Below, one piece after another: positions 16,475 to 64,000 of a DNA stretch of 64,000 nucleotides (position 1 is the first letter of the stretch; the number at the start of each line of letters is the position of its first letter). This DNA comes from Candidatus Limnocylindria bacterium (lineage in GTDB: Bacteria > Chloroflexota > Limnocylindria > P2-11E), in the NCBI GenBank assembly GCA_036518215.1, contig DATDNP010000201.1:24448-88447 (forward strand). The letters run 5' to 3'. The notes beneath the pieces are model-generated. The model did not search any database. It had not been told where the DNA came from and worked only from the letters and a program-made list of their open reading frames with translations. Both the position numbers and the translations under genes were made by a program.

Positions 16475-17163
16475 GCCGCCGACCGGAGCTCGTACCCCAC
16501 GCCGCGGAGTGTGTGGATCATGCGCGGCTCGCCGTGCGCCTCGAGCTTGTTGCGCAGGTACCCGATGTAGACCTCGAGCACGTTGTCGTTGCCCTCGAAG
16601 TCGTAGCCCCAGACGCGCTGCGTGAGCTCGCGCTTCGGGATGGCCTTTCCGGCGCTGCGCATGAGCTGGAGGAGCAGGCGGTATTCGGTCGCGGTGAGAT
16701 CGATGTCGCGCCCGCCGCGCTTCGCGCGGTGGCTTCCGGTGTCGAGCTCGAGGTCGCCGATCTCGAGGATCTCCGGCGCGGGCTGCCGCCGCCGGAGCAC
16801 CGCGCGGAGGCGGGCCGCGAGCACCTGGAGGCTGAACGGCTTCACGAGGTAGTCGTCGGCGCCCGCGTCGAGGCCGGTGATCTGGTCGACCGCGGCGTCC
16901 TTCGCTGTGACCATGAGGATCCCGACGTCAGGCAGATCCGCACGCATGCGACGGCAGAGGGTGAGTCCGTCGGTCCCCGGCATGAGGATGTCGAGCACGA
17001 GCGCGTCCGGGTGGAACGCCTTCACCGTCTCGACCGCCTGATCCGCGTCGTTCGCGATCGCGACGTCGTATCCCTCGCGTTTCAGCGCGCGGTCCACGAC
17101 GCTCGTCACGCCTTCGTCGTCGTCGACGACGAGCACTTTCGCTCGCTTCTCTTCTGTCGTCAT
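16471..17163 (-). CDS. OmpR-family response regulator
   Basis: REC domain (VLVVDDDEG...LDILMPGTDG...KPF) followed by a winged-helix OmpR/PhoB C-terminus (LTATEYRLLLQLM...VWGYDF...LEVYIGYLRNKLE). It overlaps the kinase gene (ATGA). Confidence 0.9.
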   Translation of the reverse strand: MTTEEKRAKVLVVDDDEGVTSVVDRALKREGYDVAIANDADQAVETVKAFHPDALVLDILMPGTDGLTLCRRMRADLPDVGILMVTAKDAAVDQITGLDAGADDYLVKPFSLQVLAARLRAVLRRRQPAPEILEIGDLELDTGSHRAKRGGRDIDLTATEYRLLLQLMRSAGKAIPKRELTQRVWGYDFEGNDNVLEVYIGYLRNKLEAHGEPRMIHTLRGVGYELRSAA

Positions 17164-26073: not shown

Positions 26074-26529
26074 CTAGTGACGCGCCGCCTGCTGCGGCAG
26101 CATCCCCTCCGCGTTGCGGATGCGGCGAGTGAGGATCGGGAGCAGCGCGAGCGCGAGCTGCGGGTGGCTCTCGAGGATCCCCTTGAAGTGCCAACGCTGG
26201 ATCCCGAGCGCGGTCGTCGGCTCCGTCGCGCGGACGCTCGCCGATCGCGGGAACTCATCGAGGAGCGCCATCTCGCCGACGACGTCGCCCGGACCGAGGG
26301 TCGCGAGCTTCGTCTCGTGCCCGTCCTTTTCCTGGACGACCTCGACCTTGCCGCTCCGGATGATGAACGCGCCGACGCCGGTGTCGCCCTGACGCATGAT
26401 GAGCTGGCCGGCCTGATAGGTCTGCTCGACGGCCGCGTTCGCGATCGCGTCGAGCGACCGCTGGTCGAGGTCCTCGAACCACGCGACGCGCTTCAGGAAT
26501 TCGGTGTTCGGTGCTGCCACGCGCGGCAT
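26074..26529 (-). CDS. Stand-alone cyclic-nucleotide-binding (CNB) domain protein
   Basis: A CNB fold follows the start at MPRVAAPNTEFLKRV, with the GEMALL and RSA.VRA phosphate-binding-cassette motifs. The 5' extension to 26718 was rejected. Confidence 0.7.
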   Translation of the reverse strand: MPRVAAPNTEFLKRVAWFEDLDQRSLDAIANAAVEQTYQAGQLIMRQGDTGVGAFIIRSGKVEVVQEKDGHETKLATLGPGDVVGEMALLDEFPRSASVRATEPTTALGIQRWHFKGILESHPQLALALLPILTRRIRNAEGMLPQQAARH

Positions 26530-36631: not shown

Positions 36632-38650
36632 ATGCGGGACGTCGTCGAGCGTCCGAGCGATCTCATGCCGGACGCGCGCGAGACGCTCGAGCCGATGCTC
36701 GACGATCTCGTGCGCGGACTCGGGTATGAGCGCGCGCTCATCCTCGTCCACGACGAGACCGCCGGCGCGCTCCGAGGCCTGTTCGGGCTGAACGTCCGCG
36801 ACGAGCAGGCACGTTCGGTCCTGCTGCCGCTCGCACGCGCGAACGATCCGTTCGTGACGGCGCTCCGCTCCGGCGTGCCACAGCTCGTCGATGACGTCGC
36901 GACGGACGACCGCCTCGACGACGCGGAGCGCAGCGCGCTCCTCGCGATGCGCATCACGCGCTGCGTCGCCGCCTCGCTCCCCGTGACGCACCGAGAGCGC
37001 ACGAGCACGATCGTCCTCCTCGGTCGCGAGGGCGCCATCACCGAGGCCGACCTCGAGCGTCTCCTTCCCTTCGCGCGCCAGGCCGGTGCCGCATTCACAC
37101 GAGAGCAGGACGTCGAGCTCCTCCGCCGCGCGTCCGAGTCGCACGCGATCGAGAAGGAATGGCTCTGGTGGATGCTGAACGGCGTCGACGACCCCGTCGT
37201 CGTCGCGGACGCGAAGAACGACATCCTCCACTTCAACCGCCGCGCGGAGCACCTCTTCCGCGCGTCGGATGAGGACAGCCCCGGAAAGCGGCGTGCCGTC
37301 TGGATGAACAACTTCCTCTTCACGGCGTCGCTCTCGACGTGGAGCCTCGACCGGACGAGCCGCGCCACGAGCCGCGAGGTGACGCTCGTCGACCCGATCG
37401 ACGGAAGCGAGCTCATCTTCGAGGTGCTGACGGCCGCGGCGCTGAACCACCGCACCGGAGAGCGCGGCACCGTCGCGGTGCTCAAGGACGTCACGAACAT
37501 CCGCCACATGACTCAGGAGCTCACGCGCAGCGCCGAGCGCATCCAGAGCGCCGACGTTGAGATACGCGCCGAGCGCGACAGGCTCGACCTCGTCCTCCGG
37601 AGCGTGCCGAACCCGATCATCGTCGTCGACAACGACAACCAGATCATCTCGATGAACGCGGCAGCGCAGCGGCTCTTCACGCGCACCGAGGGCCGAGCAC
37701 AGCACGCGCTCGCCAACGACGCGAAGTTCACATCGTTCCTCGCGGAGCTGCGCCTCGACCCGACGCGCGAGAAGCGCACCGAGCTGCTGCTCATCGATCC
37801 CCTCACCGAGGAGCGCCTCGAGATGGAGGTGACCGCGACCGAGGTCCGCGATCAGCACGGTGCCGTCGTCGCGATCGTCTCCGCGATGCAGGAGGTCGGC
37901 CGCTTGCGCGAGCTCGAGCGGCGACGGCTGCAGCAGGTGCTCTTCGAGACCGAGAAGCTCGCCGCCACCGGGCGTCTCGCGGCGTCGATCGCGCACGAGA
38001 TCAACAACCCGCTCGAGGCCGTCCAGAACGCGCTCTATCTGCTCGGCACGTCGGTCGCGAAGGACGGTCAGGAGCGCGAGTACCTCGGCATCGCGCAGCG
38101 CGAGACGCAGCGGATGTCGCGGATCCTTCGACAGATGCTCGGCTTCTACAAGCCGATGACCGCCATGGGCACGCTCGACGTGAACGTGCTCGTCGACGAG
38201 GCCGAGGCGCTCGTCGCGAAGCGCATCCGACAGTCCAAGGTGACGCTGGTCCGCGAGCTCGATCCGAACCTCCCGAAGATCCGCGCCTCCGCCGACCAGC
38301 TGAAGCAGGTGCTCCTCAACCTCTACCTCAACGCGCTCGAGGCGATGCCGAACGGCGGCACGCTCACCGTGGTCACGCGCGGCGGCAACGATCTCGACCT
38401 GCCCTTCGATTCGGTCCGGATCGAGGTGCGCGATACGGGCACGGGCATGGACGAGCAGACGCAGGCCCGGATCTTCGAAGCCTTCTTCTCCACGAAGGAG
38501 CAACGCGGCACCGGCCTTGGCCTCTGGGTATCGCACGGCATCGTGCAGGGGCATGGCGGCACGATGAAGGTGCGCAGCAAGCCGGGACAGGGTGCGACGT
38601 TCGTCATCGCGCTGCCCGTCGCCGGGCCGCCGGAGGTACGCGATGGCTGA
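36632..38650 (+). CDS. Cytoplasmic GAF-PAS-PAS sensor histidine kinase
   Basis: N-terminal GAF. Two PAS-like regions. H-box (LAASIAHEINNPLEAV), N-box (LNLYLNALEAM) and G-boxes (DTGTGMD, GTGLGLWVS). It starts 10 nt after the gvpA stop. Confidence 0.85.
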   Translation: MRDVVERPSDLMPDARETLEPMLDDLVRGLGYERALILVHDETAGALRGLFGLNVRDEQARSVLLPLARANDPFVTALRSGVPQLVDDVATDDRLDDAERSALLAMRITRCVAASLPVTHRERTSTIVLLGREGAITEADLERLLPFARQAGAAFTREQDVELLRRASESHAIEKEWLWWMLNGVDDPVVVADAKNDILHFNRRAEHLFRASDEDSPGKRRAVWMNNFLFTASLSTWSLDRTSRATSREVTLVDPIDGSELIFEVLTAAALNHRTGERGTVAVLKDVTNIRHMTQELTRSAERIQSADVEIRAERDRLDLVLRSVPNPIIVVDNDNQIISMNAAAQRLFTRTEGRAQHALANDAKFTSFLAELRLDPTREKRTELLLIDPLTEERLEMEVTATEVRDQHGAVVAIVSAMQEVGRLRELERRRLQQVLFETEKLAATGRLAASIAHEINNPLEAVQNALYLLGTSVAKDGQEREYLGIAQRETQRMSRILRQMLGFYKPMTAMGTLDVNVLVDEAEALVAKRIRQSKVTLVRELDPNLPKIRASADQLKQVLLNLYLNALEAMPNGGTLTVVTRGGNDLDLPFDSVRIEVRDTGTGMDEQTQARIFEAFFSTKEQRGTGLGLWVSHGIVQGHGGTMKVRSKPGQGATFVIALPVAGPPEVRDG

Positions 38651-39803
38651 GACCTGCATCCTCGTCGTCGACGACGAGCAGAGCGTAGCGACGACGATCG
38701 AAGCGATCCTGCGGCTCGACGGCCACGACGTCGTGGCGGTCACGAGCGGCACCGAGGCGATCCGCCTCCTCGGCGAGCGGCAATTCGACGTCGTCCTCAC
38801 GGACCTACGCCTCGCCGACATGGATGGCATCGAGATCCTGAAGGAGGTGCAGCGGACGGCGCCGGAGACGGCGGCCATCATGCTCACCGGCTACGCGTCG
38901 CTCGAATCCGCCATCGCCGCGCTACGGTCGGGCGCGTACGACTACCTGCTCAAGCCCTCCGACGTGGAGGAGCTGCGGGCGACGGTGAATCGCGCGATCG
39001 AGCGCCGGCAGCTCCGCCGACGGCTCCTCGAGCTCGAAGAGGTCGACCGGCTGAAGACGCAATTCCTTTCGATGGTGTCGCATGAGCTCCGCACCCCGCT
39101 CACCGCCGTGAGCGGGTTCGTGCAGGTCGCGCGGCGACGCATCGCGCGCGCGCTCGAAGGGGGCGGTGCGATCGATTGGCAGCAGGAGGCGGTGCGCACC
39201 GCGGAGACGCTCGACCTCGCGCAGCGTCAGTCGCGGCGCCTCGCGCGCCTCGTCGACGAGCTGCTCGACGTGTCGCGGCTCCAGCTCGGGCGGATCGAGC
39301 TCCACCCGGCCGAGATCGACATCGTCGATGACGTGAGAGAGGTCGTCGAGCGCATGAAGCTCCTCGTGTCGACGCACGACTTCCAGTTCCGCTCGGACAT
39401 CGAGCAGGGTCGCGTCATCGCCGATCGCGACCGGCTCGACCAGGTCTTCGAGAACCTCATCGGGAACGCGGTGAAGTACTCGCCGGCGGGCGGCACGATC
39501 GGCGTCATCGTCGGCGCCGTCGGCGACGACGTGCACGTCGCGATCAGCGATCAGGGGATCGGCATCTCGCGCGACGAGCTCGACCGCATCTTCAATCTCT
39601 TCTATCGCTCGCCCGATCCGCGCGCCGGGCACGTCGGCGGGCTCGGCCTTGGTCTCTACATCAGCCGCGACATCGTGACGCGCCACGGCGGGAGACTGTG
39701 GGCGGAGAGCGATGGCGAGGGGAGCACGTTCCACGTCAGCATCCCGCTCGCGAGCACGGGCACGACGGGCGTCACAGCCCGCGCAGGAGCGACGACAGCC
39801 TGA
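38643..39803 (+). CDS. Hybrid protein: N-terminal receiver domain fused to a histidine kinase (REC-HisKA-HATPase_c)
   Basis: REC (ILVVDDEQ...VLTDLRLADMDG...KPSDVEEL), H-box ([16 protein letters not shown]) and G-boxes (DQGIGI, GLGLGLYIS). It overlaps the upstream kinase stop. Confidence 0.85.
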   Translation: MAETCILVVDDEQSVATTIEAILRLDGHDVVAVTSGTEAIRLLGERQFDVVLTDLRLADMDGIEILKEVQRTAPETAAIMLTGYASLESAIAALRSGAYDYLLKPSDVEELRATVNRAIERRQLRRRLLELEEVDRLKTQFLSMVSHELRTPLTAVSGFVQVARRRIARALEGGGAIDWQQEAVRTAETLDLAQRQSRRLARLVDELLDVSRLQLGRIELHPAEIDIVDDVREVVERMKLLVSTHDFQFRSDIEQGRVIADRDRLDQVFENLIGNAVKYSPAGGTIGVIVGAVGDDVHVAISDQGIGISRDELDRIFNLFYRSPDPRAGHVGGLGLGLYISRDIVTRHGGRLWAESDGEGSTFHVSIPLASTGTTGVTARAGATTA

Positions 39804-50902: not shown

Positions 50903-52048
50903 CTAGGCGCTCGGCGGTAGGCGATACCCGGCGAGCGCCGGCTCACCACGCAGCCTCGCGAATCCCGGCTTGATCGTGTCGTAGATGATCGACAGGCGTT
51001 CGTCGTATCCGACGAACGCCGACTTCATCGCGTTGATGGTCAGCTTCTCGACGTCGGCGAGGTCGAGCCCGAACGCCTCCGCGAGACGATGGAACTCGTC
51101 GGAGAGCGTCACGTCCGACATGAGCCGGTTGTCGGTGTTCACCGTGACGCGGAACCGCTGCGCGATGAGCTGCCGGATGGGATGCGTCGCGAGCGACGGG
51201 ACCGCGCCCGTATCGACGTTGCTCGACGGGCAGAGCTCGAGCGGGATGCGTTTGTCGCGGACGTATGTCGCGAGCGGGCCGAGCGCGACGACCGCGTCGC
51301 CTGCGAGCGTCATGTCCTCGATGAGGCGCACGCCATGGCCGATGCGATGAGCGCCGCAGACCTGGATCGCCTGCCAGATGGACGGCGGGCCGAAGCCCTC
51401 GCCCGCGTGGATGGTGATGTTGAAGTTCTCGCGATGGCACAGGTCGAACGCCTCGAGGTGCGCCTTCGGCGGATTCCCCGCCTCCTCTCCGGCGATGTCG
51501 AACCCGACGACCCCGCGGTCGCGGAAGGCGACCGCGAGCCGCGCCATCTCGACCGAGTCGGTGCGATCGCGCATCGCGCATACGATCTGCCGCAGGACGA
51601 TGCGGTACCGCCGCTCGGCCGCCGCGAACCCGCGCTCGACCGCCTCGACGACCCGCTCGAGCGTCATCCCGCGGGCGGTGCTGAACACCGGTGCGTATCG
51701 CACCTCGGCGTAGACGACGCCGTCGTGCGCGAGGTCCTCGCCGCACTCGAACGCGACGCGCTCGATCGCGTCCGGCGCCTGCATGACCGCGATCGTGTGC
51801 GCGAACCCCCGTAGATAGAGCGACAGGGAGCCGCTCGCCGCGCTCTCGTGGAACCACCGTCCGAGCTCGCCGGGATCGTTCGTCGGGAGCCCACGGTGAC
51901 CCTGCTCCCGCGCGAGCTCGACGATCGTCGCCGGACGGAGTCCGCCGTCGAGATGGTCGTGGAGCAGAACTTTCGGTGCGGCATGCAGCGTCTCGCGCGG
52001 GATCACGCCCAGATGATGCGCCAGGTGCGCCACCGTGCTGACTTTCAC
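50903..52048 (-). CDS. add: Adenosine deaminase
   Basis: PKVLLHDHLDGG..., HAGE and SLNTDDP-like motifs (VNTDN). Confidence 0.85.
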   Translation of the reverse strand: MKVSTVAHLAHHLGVIPRETLHAAPKVLLHDHLDGGLRPATIVELAREQGHRGLPTNDPGELGRWFHESAASGSLSLYLRGFAHTIAVMQAPDAIERVAFECGEDLAHDGVVYAEVRYAPVFSTARGMTLERVVEAVERGFAAAERRYRIVLRQIVCAMRDRTDSVEMARLAVAFRDRGVVGFDIAGEEAGNPPKAHLEAFDLCHRENFNITIHAGEGFGPPSIWQAIQVCGAHRIGHGVRLIEDMTLAGDAVVALGPLATYVRDKRIPLELCPSSNVDTGAVPSLATHPIRQLIAQRFRVTVNTDNRLMSDVTLSDEFHRLAEAFGLDLADVEKLTINAMKSAFVGYDERLSIIYDTIKPGFARLRGEPALAGYRLPPSA

Positions 52049-52080
52049 AGGCGTGCGGGAGGCCCCTACGATTCGGGGCC

Positions 52081-55000
52081 GTGGGGGATCAAGGGACGGC
52101 CCGGGACGAACGGCGCGTGGCCGAGCTCGAAGCCGAGCTCGCGCGGGCGCGCGAGCAGCAGGCCGCGATCGCCGGGGTGCTGCAGGCGATGGCGGGATCG
52201 CACGCCGACGAACAGGCCATCCTCGACGCGATCGCGACGAGCGCCGTCCGGTACTGCGGCGCGAACGACGCGCAGGTCTGGCTCGTCCGCGGCGACGAGC
52301 TCGAGCGCGCCGCGCATCACGGCCCGGTCGCGAACCTCGAGGGACGGATCCGGCTCGACCCGACGTCCGTCGCGGGACGCGCGATCGGCGAGCGCCGCAC
52401 GATCCACATCAGCGACGTCCTCGGTCCCGAGGGCGATGCGTATCCGCAGACACGCGCGCGCTTCGCGCAGATGGGCCACCGCGCGCTGCTCGTCGCCCCG
52501 GTCGTGCGCGACGGGGTCGCGATCGGCTCGCTCAACCTGCGGAAGCACGCGCCCGAGCCTTTCACCACGGAGCAGATCCAGCTGCTCGAGGCGTTCGCGG
52601 ACCAGGCCGCGATCGTGATCGAGAACGTTCGCCTGCACCGCGAGACGACAGCCTCACTCGAGCGGCAGACGGCGATCAGCGACCTCCTCGGCACGATCAG
52701 CCGATCGGCGTTCGACCTCGATGCCGTCCTCACCACGATCTGCGTCCGCGCCGTGGCGCTCGTCGGCGCACAGGGCGCGTCGATCGGGATCCGCGAGGGC
52801 GACGAGATCGTCATCATCGCGACCGGCGGCGGCCCGGCGACGCTCGGCAAAGGCGAGCGCTGGCTGATCGACGACACCACCGTCGGCGGACGTGCGTTCC
52901 TGGACGGTAAGCGCCACTACGCTCCCGATGTCACAAAAGACCCGGCGCTTCCCCAGGGAGGGGCGCAGACCCGTCTCGCGATCCCATTCGTGCGCGACGG
53001 CACCGTGACCGGTGTGCTCTTCACGGCACACCGCGAGGCGAACGCGTTCGACGAACGCGACATCCAGCTGCTCGAGGTGTTCGCCGATCAGGCGGCCATC
53101 GCGATGGAGAACGTACGTCTCTACCGCGAGACGAAGGAGTCGCTCGAGCAGCAGACCGCGATCAGCGAGATCCTGCAGGTGATCTCGAGCAGCCCGACCG
53201 ACATACAGCCTGTGCTCGACGCGATCGCGCGGAACGCGGCGCGTTACTGCCTCGCGGAAGACTGCGGCGTAGCGCTCATCCGTTCCGACGGCCTGCTCGA
53301 GCAGGTCGCGCAGTACGGTCCGATCGCGCTGGACATCGCGCCATGGCCGGTCGATCGCACCTCCGTGCGTGGCCGCGCGATCGTGGACCGGCAGGTGATC
53401 CACGTACCGGACATGGCCTCCGAGAGCGAGGCCGAGTACGCCATCGGCGTTCGGCGCTCACGCGAGCTTGGCCAACGCTCGATACTCGCCGCGCCGCTCC
53501 TGCGAGAGGGCAGGCCGCTCGGCGCGATCGGGCTGCGACGCACCGAGGTCCGGCCCTTCACGGACAAGCAGATCGCGCTGCTGCGCACGTTCGCAGATCA
53601 GGCCGCCATCGCGATCGAGAACGTCCGCCTGTTCAACGAGACGAAGCAGGCGCTCGAGCAGCAGACCGCGATCAGCGAAGTGCTGCGCGCGATCTCGAGC
53701 TCGCCGACCTCGTCGCAGCCGGTCCTCGATGTCGTGGCCACGAACGCCGTGCGCTTCTGCGAGGCCGAGCACGCCGTCGTGTGCCTCATCCGCGACGGGC
53801 TCCTGACGCCCGTCGCCCACGGCGGCCTCGACTGGGAGCCCGTGAAGCCGTTCGTCATCGACCGCACGACGGTGACCGGTCGCGCGGTCGTGGACCGACG
53901 GATCACTCACGTCGCAGACCTCTGGGCGCTCGAATCCGAGTATCCGCTCGGCTATGCGCAGGCGCGCGAGGGCAACGAACGCGCGCTCGTCGCCGCGCCG
54001 CTCATGCACCAGGATGAGGTCGTCGGCGCGATCATCCTCCGGCGGACGCACCCGACGCCGTTCACCGAACGACAGATCGATCTGCTCGCGACGTTCGCCG
54101 ATCAAGCCGCGATCGCCATCTCGAACGTGCGCCTCTTCAACGAGACGAAGGAAGCGCTCGAGCAGCAGACCGCGATCGCCGACATCCTGCGCGTCATCTC
54201 CAGCTCGCCGACCGACCTGCAGCCGGTCGCGGACGCGATCGCGAAGAGCGCGCTCCGTTTCGCCGGCGCAGAGGACGCATCGCTCGTCTTGGTGAAGGAC
54301 GGAGTCTTGGTGCCGGCCTCTCACCGCGGACCGATGGTGATCCCTTTGACGGTGCCGGCGGACCGGCGTTCGGTCACCGGTCGTGCGATCCTCGACCGCA
54401 AGACGGTCCACGTCGGGGACGTCATGGCGAACGAGGAATTTCCGCAGAGCACGGAGAACGCGGCCAGCAGCGGCCAGCGCGCCGTGCTCGCCGCGCCGCT
54501 CATGCGCGAGGGGACGGCCATCGGCGCGATCCTGCTCCGCAAGACCGAGCCAAAGCCGTTCACCGACGGGCAGGTCGCCCTCGTGGAGACGTTCGCATCG
54601 CAGGCCGTGATCGCGTTCGAGAACGTGCGTCTCTTCAATGAGACAAAGGTCGCTCTCGAGCGTCAAACGGCGACGGCGGAGGTCGTCAAGCTCATGAGCA
54701 GCACCGCGTTCGACCTCCGGCGCGTGCTCGACATCGTCATCGGACACGCGACGCAGCTCGCCCAAGCCGACGCTGGGTTCATCTATCAGGCCGACGGTGA
54801 GTACCTGCGCATGACGGCGGCGTACGGCGAGCACGCCGAGGCGATGCGCGAGTGGCAAGCGGAACATCCGATCCGCGGCGACTATCTCGGGTCGGCCACC
54901 GGTCGCGCCTTCGCGGAGCGCCGGACGGTGCACATCTCGGACGTCGAAGCCGACGCGAGCTACACGTATGGCGAGGCGAAGCAGCTCGGCGCTTTCAGGA

Positions 55001-56436
55001 CGCTCCTCTCCGTGCCGCTCGTGCGCGACGATCGAGCCGTCGGCACCTTCTCGCTGTGGCGCACGACGCCACGTCCATTCACGGCAGAGGAGATCGCGCT
55101 CGTCGAGAGCTTCGCCGATCAGGCGCTCATCGCGATCGAGAACGTTCGCCTCTTCGACGAGACGAAGGGCGCCCTCGAGCGACAGACGGCACTGGGCGAG
55201 ATCCTGCGCGTCATGGCCAGCTCGCCCACGAGCGAGCAGCCGGTCCTCGACGCCATCGCCCACAACGCCGTGCGCTTCTCGGGCGCCGAGGACGCGGCGG
55301 TCGCGCTCCGTGGCGAGAAGACATATCGCTTCGTCGCGCACGAGGGTGCGCTCCTACCCGACTTTGGCGTCGATCGGCCGCTCGACGAATCGACGGTGAG
55401 CGGTCGGGCGATGCTCCGAGCCGAGCTCGTCCACGTTCCGGATATCCGTGAGCGCGCCGCGGAGTTCCCGCGCAGCTACGAGTTCGCCCAGCGCAGCGGC
55501 CAGCGCGCGATGCTCTCGGTCCCGATGCTGCACGACGGCACGGCGATCGGCTCGATCGTGCTCCGCCGCAAGGACCCGCGCGCGTACTCCAACGAGGAGA
55601 TCGAGATCGCGCGCGCCTTCGCGGACCAGGCGGCGATCGCGATCGAGAACGTGCGGCTCTTCCACGAGATCCAGGAGAAGAGCGCACAGCTCGAGATCGC
55701 GAACCGCCACAAGAGCGAGTTCCTCGCGAACATGAGCCACGAGCTGCGGACGCCGCTGAACGCGATCATCGGGTTCAGCGAGGTGCTGTTGCAGGGCATC
55801 TTCGGCGACGTGAACGAGAAGCAGCGCGAGTATCTCGACGACGTGCTGTCGTCGGGAAAGCACCTGCTCTCGCTCATCAACGACATCCTCGACCTCTCGA
55901 AGATCGAAGCGGGCCGGATGGAGCTCGAGGTCTCGACGTTCTCTCTCACCGCCGCGCTCGAGAGCGGGCTCACGATCGTCCGCGAGCGGGCCGCGCGGCA
56001 CGGGATCGCGCTCGCAGCCGTGATCCCGGACGATCTTCCGACCGTGGACGCCGACGAGCGCAAGGTGAAGCAGATCCTCTACAACCTCCTCTCGAACGCC
56101 GTGAAGTTCACTCCCGACGGCGGACGCGTGGAGGTGCGTGTGCGTCGCGTAGGCGACGACGTCGAGATCGCCGTGAAGGACAACGGCATCGGGATCGCAC
56201 CCGCGGATCAGCCCAAGGTGTTCGAGGAGTTCCGGCAGGTCGGGCGCGAGCGGTCGCGCGAAGGCACCGGCCTCGGCCTCACGCTCACGAAGCGCTTCGT
56301 CGAGCTGCACGGCGGCCGGATCTGGCTCGCGAGCGAGGTCGGCGCGGGGAGCACGTTCACGTTCACCCTCCCGCTGCGCCGCGACGCCCGCCGCGGGGAC
56401 CCTGCCAGGGAGATCACGCCCGCGCAGCCATCCTGA
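52081..56436 (+). CDS. Soluble giant sensor histidine kinase with seven tandem GAF domains (1451 aa)
   Basis: No TM helix. Seven GAF units of about 180 aa, each followed by a near-identical linker (F(A/T)[30 protein letters not shown]). Then HisKA ([19 protein letters not shown]) and HATPase_c ([16 protein letters not shown]). Confidence 0.9.
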   Translation: MGDQGTARDERRVAELEAELARAREQQAAIAGVLQAMAGSHADEQAILDAIATSAVRYCGANDAQVWLVRGDELERAAHHGPVANLEGRIRLDPTSVAGRAIGERRTIHISDVLGPEGDAYPQTRARFAQMGHRALLVAPVVRDGVAIGSLNLRKHAPEPFTTEQIQLLEAFADQAAIVIENVRLHRETTASLERQTAISDLLGTISRSAFDLDAVLTTICVRAVALVGAQGASIGIREGDEIVIIATGGGPATLGKGERWLIDDTTVGGRAFLDGKRHYAPDVTKDPALPQGGAQTRLAIPFVRDGTVTGVLFTAHREANAFDERDIQLLEVFADQAAIAMENVRLYRETKESLEQQTAISEILQVISSSPTDIQPVLDAIARNAARYCLAEDCGVALIRSDGLLEQVAQYGPIALDIAPWPVDRTSVRGRAIVDRQVIHVPDMASESEAEYAIGVRRSRELGQRSILAAPLLREGRPLGAIGLRRTEVRPFTDKQIALLRTFADQAAIAIENVRLFNETKQALEQQTAISEVLRAISSSPTSSQPVLDVVATNAVRFCEAEHAVVCLIRDGLLTPVAHGGLDWEPVKPFVIDRTTVTGRAVVDRRITHVADLWALESEYPLGYAQAREGNERALVAAPLMHQDEVVGAIILRRTHPTPFTERQIDLLATFADQAAIAISNVRLFNETKEALEQQTAIADILRVISSSPTDLQPVADAIAKSALRFAGAEDASLVLVKDGVLVPASHRGPMVIPLTVPADRRSVTGRAILDRKTVHVGDVMANEEFPQSTENAASSGQRAVLAAPLMREGTAIGAILLRKTEPKPFTDGQVALVETFASQAVIAFENVRLFNETKVALERQTATAEVVKLMSSTAFDLRRVLDIVIGHATQLAQADAGFIYQADGEYLRMTAAYGEHAEAMREWQAEHPIRGDYLGSATGRAFAERRTVHISDVEADASYTYGEAKQLGAFRTLLSVPLVRDDRAVGTFSLWRTTPRPFTAEEIALVESFADQALIAIENVRLFDETKGALERQTALGEILRVMASSPTSEQPVLDAIAHNAVRFSGAEDAAVALRGEKTYRFVAHEGALLPDFGVDRPLDESTVSGRAMLRAELVHVPDIRERAAEFPRSYEFAQRSGQRAMLSVPMLHDGTAIGSIVLRRKDPRAYSNEEIEIARAFADQAAIAIENVRLFHEIQEKSAQLEIANRHKSEFLANMSHELRTPLNAIIGFSEVLLQGIFGDVNEKQREYLDDVLSSGKHLLSLINDILDLSKIEAGRMELEVSTFSLTAALESGLTIVRERAARHGIALAAVIPDDLPTVDADERKVKQILYNLLSNAVKFTPDGGRVEVRVRRVGDDVEIAVKDNGIGIAPADQPKVFEEFRQVGRERSREGTGLGLTLTKRFVELHGGRIWLASEVGAGSTFTFTLPLRRDARRGDPAREITPAQPS
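55690..56380 (+). repeat. Duplicated kinase-core segment (near-identical at DNA level to 59115-59800)
   Basis: The HisKA-HATPase_c regions of the two adjacent kinases share long identical nucleotide runs, e.g. aaccg(c/t)cacaagagcgagttcctcgcgaacatgagccacgagctgcg. This points to a recent tandem duplication. Confidence 0.7.
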
Positions 56437-56523: not shown

Positions 56524-59500
56524 GTGGACCTCGTTCGCCGAGCTGAATGGCTCGTGGAACGACCGTGGCGACTCGTCGCCATCGTGGCCGTCGCAGTCGC
56601 GCTGCCGATCCTTGTCCTCGGTGAGATATCGAACGAACAGACGCGCGCCCGGGACGTATTGGCGCGCGCCGAGGCGGGCGAACGCGATGCGGCAGCGGCG
56701 ACCGAAGTGCTCGCGACCCGACTGACCTCGATCGAACGAGCCGTCGTAACGACGGGCTCCCGGGATCCGCTGGGCGTTCCCACGCCGCTCATCAACGCCG
56801 TCGAGCGACTGGATAGCGAGGCCATCGAGGCGGAGCTCGCTGCGGTGTGGCCGTATCGCGATCCGTCGGTGATCCGGCTGGCGGTCGTCGATCCGGACGC
56901 GCACGTCATCGGGCAGACGCCGCAGCCTCTCAGTGGTGTTCGCACCGTTGCGTCCTATAGCAGCGCGTTCGCACTGAGCGCGCCGGAAGCGAGCGACGTC
57001 CATGTCGACGCGGGCGACCCTCGCCTCGAGATCGGGACGCCCATCGAAGGAGCCGAACGGCGCGGGTATCGCCTCATCGCTACGGTGAGTCTCCGCGCGC
57101 TCGCCTCCGACACACTCGCGCCGCTCGCGTTCGTGTATCCGGACGTGTATCTCATCGACACGCGCGGGCGTCTTGCGCTGCGCGGCTCGCGTTTGCTCGC
57201 GGACGAACAACTCTTGCGCGATGTGACCGCCGCCACGGCTGTGATGCCCGGCGCATCGAGCGTGATCGATCCGATCGATCCTTCGTATCGAATACTCGCG
57301 ACCGCGCGGATGCCCGAATTCGGTTGGTCGATCGTCGTGCTCGACCCGGGCGTCTCCAACGCGACCCTGGATGCCAGCCTTGCGCAGCAGCGTGCACTGC
57401 GGATCGGCCTTGTTGTCGTGCTTCTTGTCGGCTCGGTGATCGTGGGCAACACGTCGAGCGCGACGATCCGGCGCCGTCGCGAGGCACAAGAGGCTCTCGA
57501 ACAGCAGGTCGCGACGAGCGCGGTGCTGCGTGCCATCAGCGCGACGCATGACGACGTGCAGGCCGTGCTGCAGTGTGTCGTGGATGAGGCGCTGCGCCTC
57601 TGTGACGCGGAGAGCGCGACCTTCTATCGGAGCGACGGCGAGGATCGCGTGCTCATGGCTGTCGCAGGTCGCCACCCGGAGTCTGTCCCCATCGGCGAGC
57701 GCATCGCGAACACGCCGACGACGCTGCTCAGCTTGGCCCTTCGAGAAGGGAAAACGTTCCACACGCGCGACATGTCGAGTGAGGAGACGCGCCGGCTGGT
57801 CCGGCCCGACGAAACGCAGGAGGAATGGCAGCGCACGATCCTCGCATCGTGGCCAGGACTGTCCCGGCTCGCGGTTCCCGTGATGCAGGATGGCAAGGCG
57901 GTCGGTGTCATCCGCGTCGATCGCCGTGAGCGCGGCGGCTTCACACCGCAGCAGATCAAGCTCATCGAGTCCTTCGCGGCGCAGGCCGCGATCGCGATGG
58001 AAAACGTTCGTCTCTTCAATGAGACGCGAGAGGCGCTCGATCGACAGACCGCCATTAGTGAAGTCCTGAAGACGATCTCGCAGAGCGTCTTCCAACTGGA
58101 CTCGACGCTCCAGACCGTCGTCGAGAACGCGGCACGACTGTGCGACGCGGACGCAGCCTGGATGGTCGAATGGGCCGGTGCGGGCTACACGGGCCTCGCC
58201 CGATACGCGCGCACCCCAGAGATAGCCGCGCTGCTCGAAAGGGCACGTAAGTCGCAGCCCGGCGTCGTCGCTCCAGCCGAACGGCATCGCATCGCCGGCC
58301 GGATGTTCCTCGAACGTCGCACGATCGGCGTGGCTGACATAGCGAACGAGCCGGAGCTCTCAGGGTCATGGACGGCCCTCGATATCGGTGCGCGGTCCGT
58401 GCTCGGCGTACCTGTCGTGAGCGATGGCGTGCCTCTCGCGGGAATCGTGCTTGCGCGGGTTACCGTACGCCCGTTCTCCAAGAGCGAGACGGAACTCGTC
58501 GAGACGTTCGCCGATCAGGCGGCGATCGCCATCAAGAACGTCCGTCTCTTCACCGGTACGAAGGAGGCGCTCGAGCAGCAGACCGCGGTGAGCGATGTCC
58601 TCAAGACGATCAGCCGGAGCGTGTTCGAGCTGGCGCCGACCCTACGCACGGTCGTCGAGAACGCGGCACGCATCTGCGACGCTGATGCCGGCTGGATGAC
58701 TCGCACCTCTCTGTCGGGACACAGCTCGGGAGCGCGCTACGGCCGCACGCCCGAGATCGCACGCGCCGTCGAGCTCGCGTATGAGAGGTCCGTCGGGGAC
58801 GTCTCCGGGCCCGATCCCAGTAGGATCGGGGACCGCGTCTACCTCGAACGGCGGCCGATCGTCGTCGACGACATCGCGGCCGACGCCACCCTCGCGAACT
58901 CCTACATCGCGCACGGGATCAAGTCACGCTCCGTGCTTGCGGTGCCGGTCCTTGGCGACGACGCCGTGCTCGGCGCGATCATCCTCGCTCGTCTGACGGT
59001 GAGACCGTTCTCTGAACGCGAAACGCAGCTCGTTCAGACGTTCGCTGACCAAGCCGCGATCGCGATCCAGAACGTTCGTCTCTTCAATGAGGTCGAAGAC
59101 AAGTCGCGGCAGCTCGAGGCCGCCAACCGTCACAAGAGCGAGTTCCTCGCGAACATGAGCCACGAGCTGCGAACGCCGCTCAACGCGATCATCGGCTTCA
59201 GCGAGGTGCTTCTCCAAGGGCTCTTCGGTGACATCAACGCAAAGCAGCGCGAATACCTCGACGACGTGCTGACCTCCGGGAAGCATCTGCTGTCGCTCAT
59301 CAACGACATCCTCGACCTCTCTAAGGTCGAGGCGGGCCGCATGGAGCTGGAGCTGTCGCGCTTCTCGGTCGCGACGACGGTCGATACCTCGCTCACGATC
59401 ATCCGGGAGCGTGCTGCGCGTCACAGCATCGCACTGAGGGCCGTTCTCCCGAACGATCTGCCCGAGATCGAGGCCGACGAGCGGAAGGTCCGCCAGATCC

Positions 59501-59826
59501 TCTTCAACCTCCTGTCGAACGCCGTGAAGTTCACGCCGGATGGCGGCACAATCAGCCTTCACGTGCGCCGCGAGGCCGGCGGGTTGTGCTTCGCGGTGTC
59601 GGACACGGGGATCGGGATCGCGCCGGAGGATCAGGTGAAGGTGTTCGAAGAATTCCGTCAGGTCGGCCGCGAGCGCGCGCGCGAAGGGACCGGGCTGGGC
59701 TTGACGCTCACAAAGCGCTTCGTCGAGCTCCATGGCGGCCGGATCTGGGTCGAGAGCGAGACGGGAAAGGGCAGCACGTTCTCGTTCACCCTTCCGCTGA
59801 CGCAGCCGTCGGCGGCGCCGGCATGA
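56524..59826 (+). CDS. Membrane sensor histidine kinase with an extracytoplasmic sensor domain, three GAF domains and a kinase core (1100 aa)
   Basis: TM helix at about aa 15-35 and again at about aa 290-312, with a ~250-aa extracytoplasmic region between them. Then 3x GAF with the same linker motif and a HisKA-HATPase_c core paralogous to 52081..56436. Confidence 0.9.
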
Positions 59827-60200
59827 GCGACCTCGTTCTCATCATCGAGGACAACGAGAAGAACATGAAGCTCGCGCGCGACCTCCTGCGCTTTCACGGC
59901 TTCGACACGATCGAGGCGACGAGCGCGGAGGATGGCCTCGCGCTCGCGCGGGAGCGACAGCCGCGGCTCGTCCTCATGGACATCCAGCTTCCCGGGATGG
60001 ACGGCGTCACAGCGCTGGGGCGATTGAGGTCGGACGGCACGACCGCCGCGATCCCCGTCGTCGCGATGACGGCCTCTGTGATGAAGGAGGACCGCGAGCG
60101 CTTCGACAAGGCGGGCTTCGACGGGTTCCTCATGAAGCCGATCGACGTGCGCGCGTTCCCGCAGCAGGTGCGCGACGCGATCGCGCGCGGCCGCGCGTGA
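59823..60200 (+). CDS. Single-domain response regulator (CheY-like receiver)
   Basis: ATGA overlap with the kinase stop. [11 protein letters not shown]...[13 protein letters not shown]...KPID. 125 aa with no output domain. Confidence 0.85.
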
Positions 60201-61237
60201 GCGATCGCCCGAAGATCCTCGCCGTCGACGACACCCCGGAGAACCTCCGGCTCCTCGACGCGCTCCTCGCGCCGCAGGGCTACGAGCTCGTGCCGGCGTC
60301 CTCCGGACGCGAGGCGCTCGCGCTCGTGCCGGAGCGGAGGCCGGACCTGCTCCTCGTCGACCTCGTGATGCCGGAGATGAACGGCTTCGAGGTCACCAAG
60401 GCCGTCCGCGCCGACGACACCTGGAAGCATCTGCCGATCATCATCATCACCGCGACGGGCGGCGCCGATCTCGTTCGGGCGCTCGAGGCGGGCGCGGACG
60501 ACTACGTGTCGAAGCCGTTCGACAAGAACGAGCTGCTCGCGCGCGTCCGGTCGCTCATCCGCGTGAAGAACTACTACGACACCGTGCAGCGGCAGCGCGA
60601 GGAGCTGTCGCGCTTCTTCTCGCCCGCGATCGCGCACCTCATCACGAGCGACGAAGGGAAGCGCATGCTCGACGGCCATCGTCGCGCCGTCACGGTCGTC
60701 TTCTGCGACCTGCGCGGCTTCACGGCGTTCTCGGAGACGGTGGAACCCGAGGAGGTGCTGGGCGTGCTGCGCGAGTACCACCGCGCGATGGGCGAGCTCA
60801 TCGCAGCGCACGGCGGCACGCTCGAGCACTTCGAGGGCGACGGCTTCATGGTGTTCTTCAACGATCCGATCGAAACGCCTCAGCACGAGCATGTCGCCGT
60901 GCGTATGGCCGTGGCGATGCGAGACCGCTTCGACGAGCTCGCCGCGCCGTGGCGCAGGAAGGGCTACGACCTCGCGTTCGGTGTCGGCGTTGCGGTGGGC
61001 TACGCGACGCTCGGACGCATCGGCTATGAGGGCCGCTACGACTACGCCGCGATCGGCAACGTGACGATCCACGCGTCGCGCCTCATGGCACGAGCGCAGG
61101 GCGGCGAGATCCTCATCACGCAGCGCCTGAACGCCGCGATCGAGGACGAGTTCGAGACGGCGGCCGTCGGCGAGCTCGAGCTGAAGGGCGTCACACGACC
61201 GGTCGCGGCGTTCAACGTCATTGGGAGGCGGAGATGA
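60197..61237 (+). CDS. Response regulator with a class III adenylate/guanylate cyclase (CHD) output domain
   Basis: GTGA overlap. REC (ILAVDDTPEN...LLLVDLVMPEMNG...KPFDKNEL). CHD (VTVVFCDLRGFTAFSE...GTLEHFEGDGFMVFFNDP...GVGVAVGYATLGRIG). Confidence 0.85.
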   Translation: MSDRPKILAVDDTPENLRLLDALLAPQGYELVPASSGREALALVPERRPDLLLVDLVMPEMNGFEVTKAVRADDTWKHLPIIIITATGGADLVRALEAGADDYVSKPFDKNELLARVRSLIRVKNYYDTVQRQREELSRFFSPAIAHLITSDEGKRMLDGHRRAVTVVFCDLRGFTAFSETVEPEEVLGVLREYHRAMGELIAAHGGTLEHFEGDGFMVFFNDPIETPQHEHVAVRMAVAMRDRFDELAAPWRRKGYDLAFGVGVAVGYATLGRIGYEGRYDYAAIGNVTIHASRLMARAQGGEILITQRLNAAIEDEFETAAVGELELKGVTRPVAAFNVIGRRR

Positions 61238-63366
61238 GCGACATCTACGAGACGATCAGTACGCGGCTCGATTACGGCTCGTTCGTCCCGCGGCCCATCG
61301 GCGATGTCGAGCGCGCGGACCTGAAGCGGCGGGACGGCACGATGTACACCGTCCTGAAGAACCCGCACGGCGACCGTGCCGCCGGCCTCTACATCCGGCT
61401 CGAGCCGGATGACGTCGCGCTCTTCGAGCTGATGGACGGCAACCGCACGATCCAAGACATCCTTGTCAATTACCTGGCGACGCACGGCGTGCTCGCCGTC
61501 GACCGCCTCGCGCGCCTCACGGCCGCGCTGTCGGCGAACGGCTTCTTCGGCGACGAGCGCCCGCGCTTCTACGAGCGCCTCGCCATGAACCGCCAGCTCC
61601 GCGATCCGCTCGTTCGTCTTTCGCTGTCGCTGCGGCGGCTCATCACGTGGGACATCGCGCGCTGGTCGAACGCCGATTCGCTCGTCCAGCGCGTGTACCG
61701 CGCCGGAGCGTGGCTGGCGTTCACGCCCGTCGGCGCGGCGCTCATCGCGGTCCTCTGCGTCGCCGGGATCGTCGCGTGGGTCCGCGAGGTCAGCGTCGGT
61801 CGCCACACGCTCGTCACGCTCGACGGGTCATTCGTGCTCGGGATCGTCGCCCTCATCCTCCTCCAGGTGCTATCGATCTCTGTGCACGAGGCAGGGCACG
61901 CGCTCGCGATCGCGCATTACGGGCGTCGCGTCCGACGCCTCGGTCTCGCGGTCTATTACCTCTTCCCGTGCGTCTACGTTGACAGCACCGACATGACGAT
62001 GGCATCACGAAAGGCGCGCATCGTCGTGTCCCTCGCCGGTCCGGTGGGCGGTCTCACGGTGAGCGCACTGTGCGCATTCGTGGCGATCGCCGACGGCGGA
62101 GTCCTCGGCAGCATCGCCTTCAAAGCATCGTCGCTCTTCCTTTTCCAATTCGCGCTCAACCTCATGCCGATCCTCGAGCTCGACGGCTACTACATCCTCG
62201 TCGACCTGCTCGACGCTCCGCTCCTCCGACAGCGCGCGCTCGCGTTCGCGCGGGGCGGCGTCATGCGGAAGCTTCGACGGCGCGAGCGGTGGTCGCCGTC
62301 GGAGATCGGGCTCGGCGTGTACGGCCTTCTCGCGATCGCCACCTCCTTCCTGATGATCGGCTTGTCGCTCGCGCTCTGGGAGTCACGCGTCTCGATCGCG
62401 GCACGCGAGCTGCTCGCAGCGGGGCCGCTCGGAGCGCTCGCGCTGGCGCTCCTCGTGCTCGTGTTCATCGGTCCACTCATCGTGGCGCTCACGATCCGCG
62501 TGGTCGGCTGGGGCAGGACCTTCGCGAAGGGGCGCGCACGGCGCGTACGCCGGCGTGAGCAGCAGGCGCTCGTCGAACGCGCACGCATCCTCTCGCGCGT
62601 GCCGTTCCTCGCGAGTCTCGCAGGGAATGCGCTCATCGCGATCGCGTCACACCTGAGCGAGGAGCGTGTGGACGCGAATACGAACGTCGTGACGATCGGC
62701 GAGCCCGGCCAGCGTTTCTACGTCGTGCGCTCGGGCCGTCTCGAGGTGCTCGACGCGAGCGGGCGCGTCATCGGCACGCTCGCGCCGGGTGACGGCTTCG
62801 GAGAGCTCGCGCTGCTCGACCACCGGCCGCGGACGGCGACGGTGCGCGCGACCGAGCCGAGCGAGCTCTGGTCCCTCGACCGCGGCCACTTCGAGCGTTG
62901 GATCCGCGAGCGGTACGAGATCGCCGCGCGGATCCGCGCGTCGGCTGAGGAGCGCGACATGCTCGCGAAGCTGCCCTTCTTCAAGGGACTGGAGCCTGCC
63001 GAGCTCGACCGGATCGTGCCGCATCTCAAGCTGACTCGCGTCGCCGCGGGCGAGGCGGTCTTCCGCGAAGGCGATCCCGGCGACCGCTACTACGTCATTC
63101 GCGAGGGCGAGGCGGACGTGAGCGTCGGCGGGAGCCTCGTGGCCCACCTCGGACCGGGCAGCGGCTTCGGGGAGCTCGCGCTGCTTTTCGGGAAGCCGCG
63201 TACAGCCACGGTGACCGCTACGAAGGATCTTGTCCTGGCCTCCCTCGGGCGCAGCGAGTTCGGCTGGCTCGTACGGGAATCAGGTGAGACGATGGGTGAG
63301 TTCAAGACACGAACGGCGCATTATGTCGGTTCCGCCGGCCTCGGGACGGCGGTGAGGGGGGCTTAG
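61234..63366 (+). CDS. Site-2 protease (peptidase M50) fused to two C-terminal cyclic-nucleotide-binding domains
   Basis: ATGA overlap. M50 zinc motif (HEAGHAL) in a TM helix and the second S2P motif (NLMPILELDG), with multiple TM helices. Then 2x CNB with GFGELALL...RTATVRA and GFGELALLFGKPRTATVTA. Confidence 0.85.
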   Translation: MSDIYETISTRLDYGSFVPRPIGDVERADLKRRDGTMYTVLKNPHGDRAAGLYIRLEPDDVALFELMDGNRTIQDILVNYLATHGVLAVDRLARLTAALSANGFFGDERPRFYERLAMNRQLRDPLVRLSLSLRRLITWDIARWSNADSLVQRVYRAGAWLAFTPVGAALIAVLCVAGIVAWVREVSVGRHTLVTLDGSFVLGIVALILLQVLSISVHEAGHALAIAHYGRRVRRLGLAVYYLFPCVYVDSTDMTMASRKARIVVSLAGPVGGLTVSALCAFVAIADGGVLGSIAFKASSLFLFQFALNLMPILELDGYYILVDLLDAPLLRQRALAFARGGVMRKLRRRERWSPSEIGLGVYGLLAIATSFLMIGLSLALWESRVSIAARELLAAGPLGALALALLVLVFIGPLIVALTIRVVGWGRTFAKGRARRVRRREQQALVERARILSRVPFLASLAGNALIAIASHLSEERVDANTNVVTIGEPGQRFYVVRSGRLEVLDASGRVIGTLAPGDGFGELALLDHRPRTATVRATEPSELWSLDRGHFERWIRERYEIAARIRASAEERDMLAKLPFFKGLEPAELDRIVPHLKLTRVAAGEAVFREGDPGDRYYVIREGEADVSVGGSLVAHLGPGSGFGELALLFGKPRTATVTATKDLVLASLGRSEFGWLVRESGETMGEFKTRTAHYVGSAGLGTAVRGA

Positions 63367-63367
63367 G

Positions 63368-63583
63368 GTGGACTGCTGGGTCTGCGAGCGCACGGCGCTC
63401 GGGGCGTGCCGGTTCTGCGGCCGCGGCACCTGCCGCGACCACGCGCGCACGCACCCCTTCGTCATCGAAGTGTTCCGCGGACGCAAGCACGAGACGCTGC
63501 GGGCGCTCGTCGTCGAGGACGCGCTCCACTGTGGCGTGTGCAAGCCCCGCAGCGAGCCCGTCGAGCTCCCCGAGCTCGAGTGA
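63368..63583 (+). CDS. Small Cys-rich zinc-ribbon-like protein
   Basis: GTG 1 nt after the protease stop. 71 aa with CWVCE..13..CRFCGRGTC..25..HCGVCK and an acidic tail. This is a predicted Cys4-type zinc ribbon. Confidence 0.5.
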   Translation: MDCWVCERTALGACRFCGRGTCRDHARTHPFVIEVFRGRKHETLRALVVEDALHCGVCKPRSEPVELPELE

Positions 63584-63703: not shown

Positions 63704-64000
63704 TGTCCAAGGAAGCTCTCGCGAAGGTGGTCCAGCGGGCGATCAGTGACGCGGCGTTCCGCCGTCAGATCTCGAGCGATCCGACGGGTGCGCTGCGCGG
63801 CTTCGACCTGACGTCGGACGAGACCGCGGCCATCCGCGCGGCGGACGCTGGCAAGCTCAGCGCGCTCGGCATCGACCAGCGCATGAGCAAGGCGTTCACC
63901 CTCGGCGGGAACGCGGACTCTCCGAGCATGGTCGGCGGCACCGACATCAACACGCTCGGCAGCGCGATCACGACCGGAAGCGCGGGCACGGCCGGCGGCG
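63704..64000 (+). CDS. Protein with a Nif11/NHLP-like N-terminal leader domain (5' part; paralog of 32241..32828)
   Basis: MSKEALAKVVQRAISDAAFRRQISSDPTGALRGFDLTSDETAAIRAADAGKLSALGIDQRMSKAFTLGG is about 60% identical to the N-terminus of the 32241 gene. It runs off the window end. Confidence 0.5.

Follow-up and report, generated by a model that had tools for sequence, protein, structure and literature searches.

Class III nucleotidyl cyclases that are placed under two-component control by a fused receiver domain are well established in bacteria, with CyaC of Anabaena and Spirulina and CyaB of Stigmatella as examples; receiver-containing adenylate cyclases are reportedly the subject of studies by Kasahara and Ohmori in 1999 and by Coudart-Cavalli et al. 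in 1997. A different arrangement is seen in Caulobacter, where the gene for the free receiver DivK lies directly upstream of the gene for PleD, a receiver-fused nucleotide cyclase. Here we analyze a locus that resembles both of these systems, located in a stretch of 64,000 nucleotides (the window, to which positions refer unless a locus is named) from Candidatus Limnocylindria bacterium, a member of the Chloroflexota (assembly GCA_036518215.1, contig DATDNP010000201.1, positions 24,448 to 88,447 of the forward strand). Its central gene (60197..61237, + strand) begins with a GTG codon and codes for a protein of 346 amino acids (aa) in which a receiver (REC) domain is joined to a class III cyclase homology domain (CHD), as supported by the open reading frame (ORF) list, by Pfam matches to REC and Guanylate_cyc, and by an exact match in NCBI. 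The identical database entry, HEY6960048.1, is labeled "response regulator" from Candidatus Limnocylindria, and the relatives of this protein, which we call REC-CHD, carry either that label or "class 3 adenylate cyclase".

We consider it probable, at roughly 60%, that REC-CHD is a phosphorylation-controlled class III nucleotidyl cyclase serving as the output of a two-component pathway, and that its product is read by the protease encoded immediately downstream. The architecture itself is known, both from the cyclases named above and because the gene has already been deposited; our literature search on response-regulator adenylate cyclases returned nothing specific. What is new is the active site, a conserved non-canonical pocket that also lacks the transition-state Asn and belongs to a large clade in which we found no characterized member. 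Also new are the combination of a DivK/PleD-like cassette with a cyclic-mononucleotide output, and its coupling to an intramembrane protease that carries domains for binding cyclic nucleoside monophosphates (cNMPs).

The preliminary description of this DNA had proposed that a receiver with a conserved Asp pocket is fused to a CHD, quoting the motifs FCDLRGFT and EGDGFMVFF, and that the gene sits between a single-domain receiver and a cNMP-binding protease. All of this was borne out by our analysis. The receiver (residues 7-118; 60215..60550, +) matches Response_reg (PF00072) with an E-value of 1.3e-29 and 103 bits against a cutoff of 30.2, and the cyclase domain (residues 163-333; 60683..61195, +) matches Guanylate_cyc (PF00211) with an E-value of 1.5e-20 and 74 bits against a cutoff of 21.9. 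The first motif occupies residues 169-176 and the second lies in a segment that begins as LEHFEGDGFM at residue 209, while Pfam and the coordinates agree on the flanking single-domain REC (59823-60200) and cNMP-binding protease (61234-63366). The receiver pocket is complete, with the acidic residues D11/D12, the phospho-acceptor D55 (codon 60359-60361, +), T85, Y103 and K106, and is kept in 119-121 of 121 sequences, Y103 being Phe in most homologs; conservation was counted, here and below, over the query and 120 homologs that are 64-92% identical to it. The best solved match of this receiver is REC1 of PleD, and it also matches the NCBIfam PleD family (3.8e-39) at a score under that family's cutoff.

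Between the two domains lies a helical linker (residues 119-162; 60551..60682, +), which was delimited by DSSP on an AlphaFold2 model of REC-CHD built from an input of 46 homologs (mean predicted local distance difference test score, pLDDT, of 90.6). In this model helix alpha5 of the receiver runs unbroken to residue 138 (helix 110-138) and is followed by short helices at residues 143-150 and 152-158, within which the segment FFSPAIAHLI resembles a cyclase-transducer element. From query residue 130 onward, the linker can be aligned to the segment that joins sensor and effector in 6FHT, a phytochrome-Cya2 fusion.

The catalytic domain was assigned to the class III cyclases by Pfam, by matches to CyaB and Cya2 and by Foldseek. 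Its best match in both sequence (1e-33) and structure is the class IIIb adenylate cyclase CyaB of Pseudomonas aeruginosa (3R5G), onto which the modeled domain superposes with a target TM-score of 0.92 and a root-mean-square deviation (rmsd) of 1.4 Å at 37% identity. The second-closest solved relative is Cya2, a guanylate cyclase of Synechocystis (2W01, 2.7e-25), whose linker/transducer segment aligns as well. The catalytic domain of CyaC also matches (1WC0, 6.8e-16); Ma1120 of Mycobacterium avium is a distant match (2.6e-07). All best matches are class IIIb and the transducer-like linker aligns, yet the hallmark Thr of this class is replaced by Ala and the Lys by His. The mode of control also differs among these relatives. 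In CyaB, control is exerted by a MASE2 domain in the membrane and not by a receiver, whereas CyaC, as predicted for REC-CHD, is a class III cyclase governed through a fused receiver; CyaC is however a large hybrid of receiver, kinase, receiver and cyclase with the canonical Lys/Thr/Asn set, and REC-CHD is a minimal REC-linker-cyclase protein with a non-canonical pocket.

The register of the active site was taken from ungapped HMMER alignments to CyaB (3R5G), Cya2 (2W01) and CyaC (1WC0), and all codons given below are on the + strand. Four elements of the catalytic machinery are retained. The first metal-binding Asp, D171 (60707..60709), lies in FCDLRGFT and aligns with the Asp of FSDIRGFT in CyaB; the second, D215 (60839..60841), lies in EGDGFM; and the transition-state Arg is R295 (61079..61081). 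Each of these is found in 121/121 sequences. K330 of the motif ELKGV (61184..61186; 120/121) aligns with the KG-motif Lys of CyaB, Cya2 and CyaC and is presumably the phosphate-binding Lys. The metal Asp pair, the Arg and this Lys align with those of CyaB.

The residues that select the base have changed. At the position of the adenine-selecting Lys, four residues before D215, REC-CHD has H211 (60827..60829), which is His in 121/121 sequences, as compared to Lys in CyaB and CyaC and Glu in Cya2. Two residues before D215 stands the polar E213 (60833..60835), where the three reference enzymes have Val or Met; Glu at this position is typical of the orthologs linked to an M50 protease with cNMP-binding domains (M50-CNB). 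The second substrate-specifying position is A284 (61046..61048; Ala in 107 and Gly in 14 of the 121), as compared to Thr in CyaB and CyaC and Gly in Cya2. The transition-state Asn that both CyaB and Cya2 possess four residues before the Arg is replaced by I291 (61067..61069), and the residue directly preceding the Arg is Ser294, where Cya2 has Tyr. The preliminary description had looked to the Lys/Asp versus Glu/Cys pair for a prediction of cAMP or cGMP (the 3',5'-cyclic forms of AMP and GMP); the alignment could be made, but with His211/Ala284 as the pair it returns neither answer. The adenylate cyclase signature (Lys with Asp in class IIIa, or with Thr/Ser in class IIIb) is absent at both H211 and A284, and the guanylate cyclase signature is absent at the first position, which is His and not Glu, while Ala at the second position, where guanylate cyclases may have Cys, Ser, Thr, Gly or Ala, is compatible with it (PMC4215837).

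An error of register at the Asn position was considered and ruled out, as the HMMER alignments are ungapped across G-x-x-x-[N/I]-x-A-x-R, I291 is the fourth residue of helix 288-299 in the AlphaFold2 model, and the model superposes closely on CyaB. We also rejected the idea that N288, a conserved residue directly after the Gly, is a displaced catalytic Asn, because canonical cyclases carry an Asn at that position too.

Searching the full library with the cyclase domain retrieved 1323 cluster representatives at E <= 1e-30, and residues were counted in the 150 that lie nearest. At the Lys position, 76 of them have Arg, 49 His, 17 Gln and just 1 Lys, and the Asn is kept in 130 and replaced by Ile in 15, while the two metal Asp residues are kept in 148 and 148 and the Arg in 147. 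REC-CHD is thus a member of a large "non-Lys" clade among the class III cyclases and, within it, of a small subgroup that is also without the Asn. This Arg/His/Gln clade ranges over Chloroflexota, Nitrospira and rhizobia. The exact His-Glu-Ala-Ile set of REC-CHD recurs in the M50-CNB protease-linked orthologs P0056, P0073 and P0087, and His-Ala-Gly-Ile is found in the close relatives P0106 and P0108; the P0108 locus was examined and is without the protease. A literature search on substrate-specifying positions occupied by His or another non-canonical residue gave no relevant match.

What does such a pocket make? The product should be a 3',5'-cyclic mononucleotide, with cAMP as the most probable single product on prior grounds, a choice that the sequence itself does not decide. 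Characterized bacterial class III enzymes are mostly adenylate cyclases, CyaB, the closest solved relative, among them, and both points argue against a product derived from another nucleotide. It is nevertheless possible, if clearly the less probable case, that an enzyme of the same architecture and regulation uses H211, E213 and A284 to select a nucleotide other than ATP, making cGMP, cyclic CMP or UMP (cCMP/cUMP), or a mixture. Neither the Lys/Asp(Thr) adenylate nor the Glu/Cys(Gly, Ser) guanylate signature is present, the Lys is absent in 149/150 of the nearest cluster representatives, and one of the closest solved relatives, Cya2, is a guanylate cyclase, all of which would fit such an enzyme. 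On the side of the reader, the cNMP-binding domains of the protease have intact G-E...R-T-A cassettes, a motif common to cAMP and cGMP binders; at the position that we take to correspond to the guanine-contacting Arg297 of PKG I-beta (by manual alignment) they have Gly or Ala, which speaks against a non-ATP product.

Two described enzymes lend further weight to a non-ATP product. XC_0250 of Xanthomonas produces cGMP both in vitro and in vivo; its second specificity position is Ala, and a hydrophobic Leu stands in place of the Asn, the two residues lying 7 positions apart just as A284 and I291 do (PMC3770947). Unlike REC-CHD, this enzyme lacks the Arg, having Ala in its place, and it carries tetratricopeptide repeats (TPR) rather than a receiver (PMC3770947). 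In EaPycC, a cCMP cyclase, R142 and Q144 stand at -4 and -2 from the metal Asp D146, the very positions that H211 and E213 occupy relative to D215 (PMC11224242). Against this, the Tyr before the Arg that boosts guanylate cyclase activity in Cya2 (PMC4215837) is Ser294 in REC-CHD, and a CRP-type transcriptional regulator encoded near the operon in orthologous loci has Ser-Thr at its base-reading position, the residue type with which CRP proteins read adenine (PMC11224242). This regulator (224 aa, with cNMP_binding and HTH_Crp_2 domains; L081 14362-15036, - strand, and also in L085, L087 and L088) is closest to the CRP of M. tuberculosis (4.7e-36). In the orthologous contigs a few genes separate it from the downstream end of the operon, which places it beyond the end of our window. 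Its presence may be read as a weak hint at cAMP, and the regulator might itself respond to the same messenger as a second reader.

The preliminary description had named the loss of catalytic residues, namely the metal-binding Asp pair and the transition-state Asn and Arg, as the mark of a pseudo-cyclase. Of these residues REC-CHD retains the Asp pair and the Arg, whereas the place of the Asn is taken by Ile291, which is Ile in 119/121 sequences. We consider it improbable that REC-CHD is dead or nearly so, acting as a phosphorylation-dependent dimerization or nucleotide-binding module next to a protease that receives its cNMP from elsewhere, even with the Asn changed to Ile and both base-selecting residues non-canonical. 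The metal Asp pair, R295, K330, G-D-G and F-x-D-x-R-G-F-T are invariant or nearly so across hundreds of sequences, which decay would not have preserved, and His211 is itself invariant. The missing Asn does not by itself make a pseudo-cyclase, since active enzymes without it are documented: besides XC_0250, Ma1120 is an active adenylate cyclase that keeps the Arg and has the small hydrophobic Ala164 at the Asn position (PMC4215837), although Ma1120, unlike REC-CHD, has the canonical Lys/Asp pair and no receiver. REC-CHD moreover provides the sole cyclase domain in the 64-kb window, and its gene is translationally coupled to that of a protein with two cNMP-binding domains. Since D171, D215, R295 and K330 are all kept, we expect the enzyme to be active, with a two-metal core and the Arg and Lys in place, and a dead enzyme to be unlikely. 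A heterodimer in which a second cyclase subunit would contribute the absent residues was rejected as well, there being no second cyclase domain in the window, and REC-CHD itself has both the Asp pair and the Arg, which does not fit a C1/C2-like division of labor.

An anti-phage system of the Pycsar/Pucsar type, made of a cyclase and a cNMP-binding effector, can be dismissed as extremely unlikely: PADLOC models of PycC match the cyclase domain (best 9.9e-19) and those of PycTIR/effectors match the cNMP-binding domains (1.3e-20), but these matches are confined to generic domains and are no better than those of Pfam, a TIR domain is missing and only effector models of the TIR type were matched, the cyclase appears to be under two-component control with an M50 protease as its effector, and the housekeeping-like neighbors (adenosine deaminase, CRP-like regulator, amidohydrolases), constant in several Limnocylindria genomes, make the locus unlike a variable defense island, so that neither context nor effector fits.

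The gene of REC-CHD is the fourth in a run of + strand genes, in which stop and start codons overlap by 4 nt (ATGA or GTGA) from the second kinase gene onward (59823-59826, 60197-60200 and 61234-61237). The run begins with two histidine kinase genes as defined by Pfam. The first, HK1 (52081..56436, +), codes for seven mapped GAF repeats followed by HisKA and HATPase_c, and the second, HK2 (56524..59826, +), for an N-terminal region without a Pfam match, three GAF domains, HisKA and HATPase_c. The kinase cores of HK1 and HK2 are 79% identical and their H-box helices, which carry the phospho-His, are identical, and we therefore infer that the two kinases share partner specificity and address the same receivers. 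Elsewhere in the window, two more sets of histidine kinase core plus receiver matches are found (~37982-39749, + strand, and ~15131-17136, - strand). Divergent from HK1 lies a gene for adenosine deaminase (50903-52048, - strand), an adjacency that is kept in the orthologous loci L081, L083, L085 and L088. The only sigma-70-like site between positions 51500 and 64000 falls at 52044-52072, between the adenosine deaminase gene and HK1; with one site found and 0.5 expected, this is a weak observation.

The third gene of the run (59823..60200, +) codes for a free, single-domain receiver of 125 aa (Pfam 7.2e-24), whose start codon overlaps the stop of HK2 and whose stop codon overlaps the start of REC-CHD. 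Its best solved match is Caulobacter DivK (1M5T, 1.5e-26), and it is 33% identical to the receiver of the cyclase. The locus resembles the DivK-PleD system in several respects: the order of the two genes is the same, the free receiver is nearest to DivK and the fused receiver to REC1 of PleD, and the pair is conserved across phyla together with a related kinase. Unlike PleD, whose output is a REC2-GGDEF module making cyclic di-GMP, REC-CHD has a PF00211 class III cyclase as its output, and its presumed kinases are of a poly-GAF type. The preliminary description had suggested that the free receiver acts as a phosphate sink or branch point, as in multi-receiver phosphorelays, and either role is possible. 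A DivK/PleD-style arrangement, in which the free receiver feeds back on the kinase, is by analogy at least as likely, because the pairing of free receiver and receiver-cyclase is kept behind a related kinase; like DivK beside PleD, the free receiver would then be produced along with the kinases and either compete for them or modulate them. A multi-step phosphorelay through the free receiver is argued against by the operon itself, as Pfam finds no Hpt domain in any of its proteins.

Immediately downstream of REC-CHD, the fifth gene (61234..63366, +) codes for an M50 (HExxH) intramembrane metalloprotease whose C-terminal part holds two cNMP-binding domains (Pfam; cNMP_binding 1.8e-40, Peptidase_M50 1.7e-08). 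By eye, the translation displays the motifs HEAGH and N-x-x-P-x-x-x-L-D-G. Its best NCBIfam matches, both under the respective cutoffs, are to two proteases that act in the maturation of ribosomally synthesized and post-translationally modified peptides (RiPPs), the daptide HExxH protease (2.9e-35) and one of the YydH/LiaK type (1.4e-16). Among the matches listed, all homologs with organism names come from Limnocylindria or related metagenome-assembled genomes, one of them labeled Candidatus Acidoferrales. We propose the protease as a candidate reader of the cyclase product because the linkage of the two genes is conserved. A described precedent for such a pairing is XC_0250/XC_0249 of Xanthomonas, in which the cyclase gene adjoins that of an effector whose cNMP-binding domain controls its enzymatic output (PMC3770947); there the effector is a diguanylate cyclase, not a protease. 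Among the papers listed in our literature search on site-2/M50 intramembrane proteases, none referred to a cyclic nucleotide-binding domain. Elsewhere in the window (~26182-26496, - strand) another cNMP-binding domain is encoded, which shares 38% identity with the first of the two in the protease.

Two genes follow the protease. The first (63368..63583, +) codes for a Cys-rich protein of 71 aa (CxxC...CxxC...C...H), and a similar protein of ~71-73 aa follows the protease in every orthologous locus examined. The second is an ORF that runs off the window (~63704-64000, +) and starts with MSKEALAKVVQRAISDAAFRRQISSDPTGALRGFDLTSDE, which looks like a RiPP leader of the NHLP/Frankia_peptide type; at the same position in L088, two genes match Frankia_peptide (PF14407) weakly. 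Both the 71-aa protein and the product of the RiPP-like ORF are candidate substrates of the protease. That a non-cAMP messenger (cGMP or a cyclic pyrimidine) directly gates the protease, which in turn processes the RiPP-like precursor, is a rather unlikely but specific form that the pathway could take.

The order of these genes is conserved among Limnocylindria, whose contigs repeat the series of poly-GAF kinase(s), free REC, REC-cyclase, protease with two cNMP-binding domains (M50-CNB2) and ~71-73-aa protein; the part from the free REC onward is kept in L081-L088, with or without a GAF domain in the cyclase protein. Where the contig reaches far enough, the flanks are also constant, with adenosine deaminase upstream on the other strand, and a protein of ~200-270 aa and the other-strand CRP-like regulator downstream. 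The kinases vary, numbering one to three genes per orthologous locus and differing by fission and fusion: the two genes described here (7 and 3 GAF domains) correspond to three in L081, and to single poly-GAF kinase genes for 1306 aa in L083, 2515 aa in L085 and 2326 aa in L088. In some Limnocylindria a GAF domain is inserted between receiver and cyclase, giving proteins of 520-542 aa (L088 10001-11563 and L089 10001-11629). That of L088 occupies the same operon position, before M50-CNB2, and L089 is without the protease.

Beyond these orthologs, the order of kinase, free REC and REC-CHD recurs in nine loci (L001-L009), with kinase cores 48-77% identical, from Limnocylindria (as a paralogous copy), Nitrospira, Rhizobium, Mesorhizobium, an uncultured alphaproteobacterium and Microvirga. 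In Rhizobium sp. LjRoot258, for example, the kinase is of the form 4HB_MCP-HAMP-GAF-GAF-HisKA-HATPase_c and its stop codon overlaps the start of the free REC gene. The long matches that could be taken for an inserted domain in these nine relatives proved to span two genes, that of the free REC and that of REC-CHD, and the insertion was discarded. Since this gene order recurs in these other genomes, the three-gene cassette is an old mobile unit, to which the protease is a lineage-specific addition.

Under the reading of REC-CHD as a phosphorylation-controlled cyclase, HK1 and HK2 would phosphorylate D55 of its receiver and probably also the DivK-like free receiver. Phosphorylation of D55 would drive dimerization of the receivers, and the signal would then pass through helix alpha5 into the transducer-like element, setting the register of the linker and closing the catalytic homodimer of the cyclase, as is customary for dimeric outputs fused to receivers. 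The closed dimer would make a 3',5'-cyclic mononucleotide using its two-metal core and a rebuilt base pocket of H211, E213, A284 and Ile291, the last of these taking the place of the ribose-contacting Asn. As the conserved gene linkage suggests, the protease would read the product through its two cNMP-binding domains, and the CRP-type regulator might possibly do so too.

Several observations weigh against this reading. The transition-state Asn is gone and both canonical base-selecting residues are swapped, so that activity could be low and the product is uncertain; the chemistry of the new residues is ambiguous as well, since a His donor and a Glu acceptor could pair with the edges of adenine, guanine or cytosine. 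We found no enzymology for REC-CHD or for any member of the Arg/His/Gln clade. The linkage to the protease is seen only within Limnocylindria and is absent at L001-L009 and L089. In addition, the pairing of the kinases with the two receivers is deduced from sequence identity alone, and the AlphaFold2 model is that of a monomer, which is silent on the dimer and on the phospho-switch.

If a non-cAMP messenger gates the protease and the protease processes the RiPP-like precursor, the pathway would lead from a two-component system through a cNMP to regulated proteolysis, a route without a described counterpart, and in case the product gates the M50 protease, this would be the first cyclic-nucleotide-regulated intramembrane protease found in our literature search. 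The standard residue rule for telling cAMP from cGMP producers fails for REC-CHD, and among the 150 nearest sequence clusters it fails in no fewer than 149. Phage defense has recently yielded pyrimidine and guanine cyclases (Pycsar and Pucsar papers), and these discoveries make it a matter of current interest which base a divergent class III enzyme selects. With kinase, DivK-like receiver, cyclase and cNMP-binding effector encoded together, the operon offers a compact test case, and the pathway with a non-cAMP messenger, if confirmed, would provide the first assigned specificity for the large Arg/His/Gln clade of class III cyclases.

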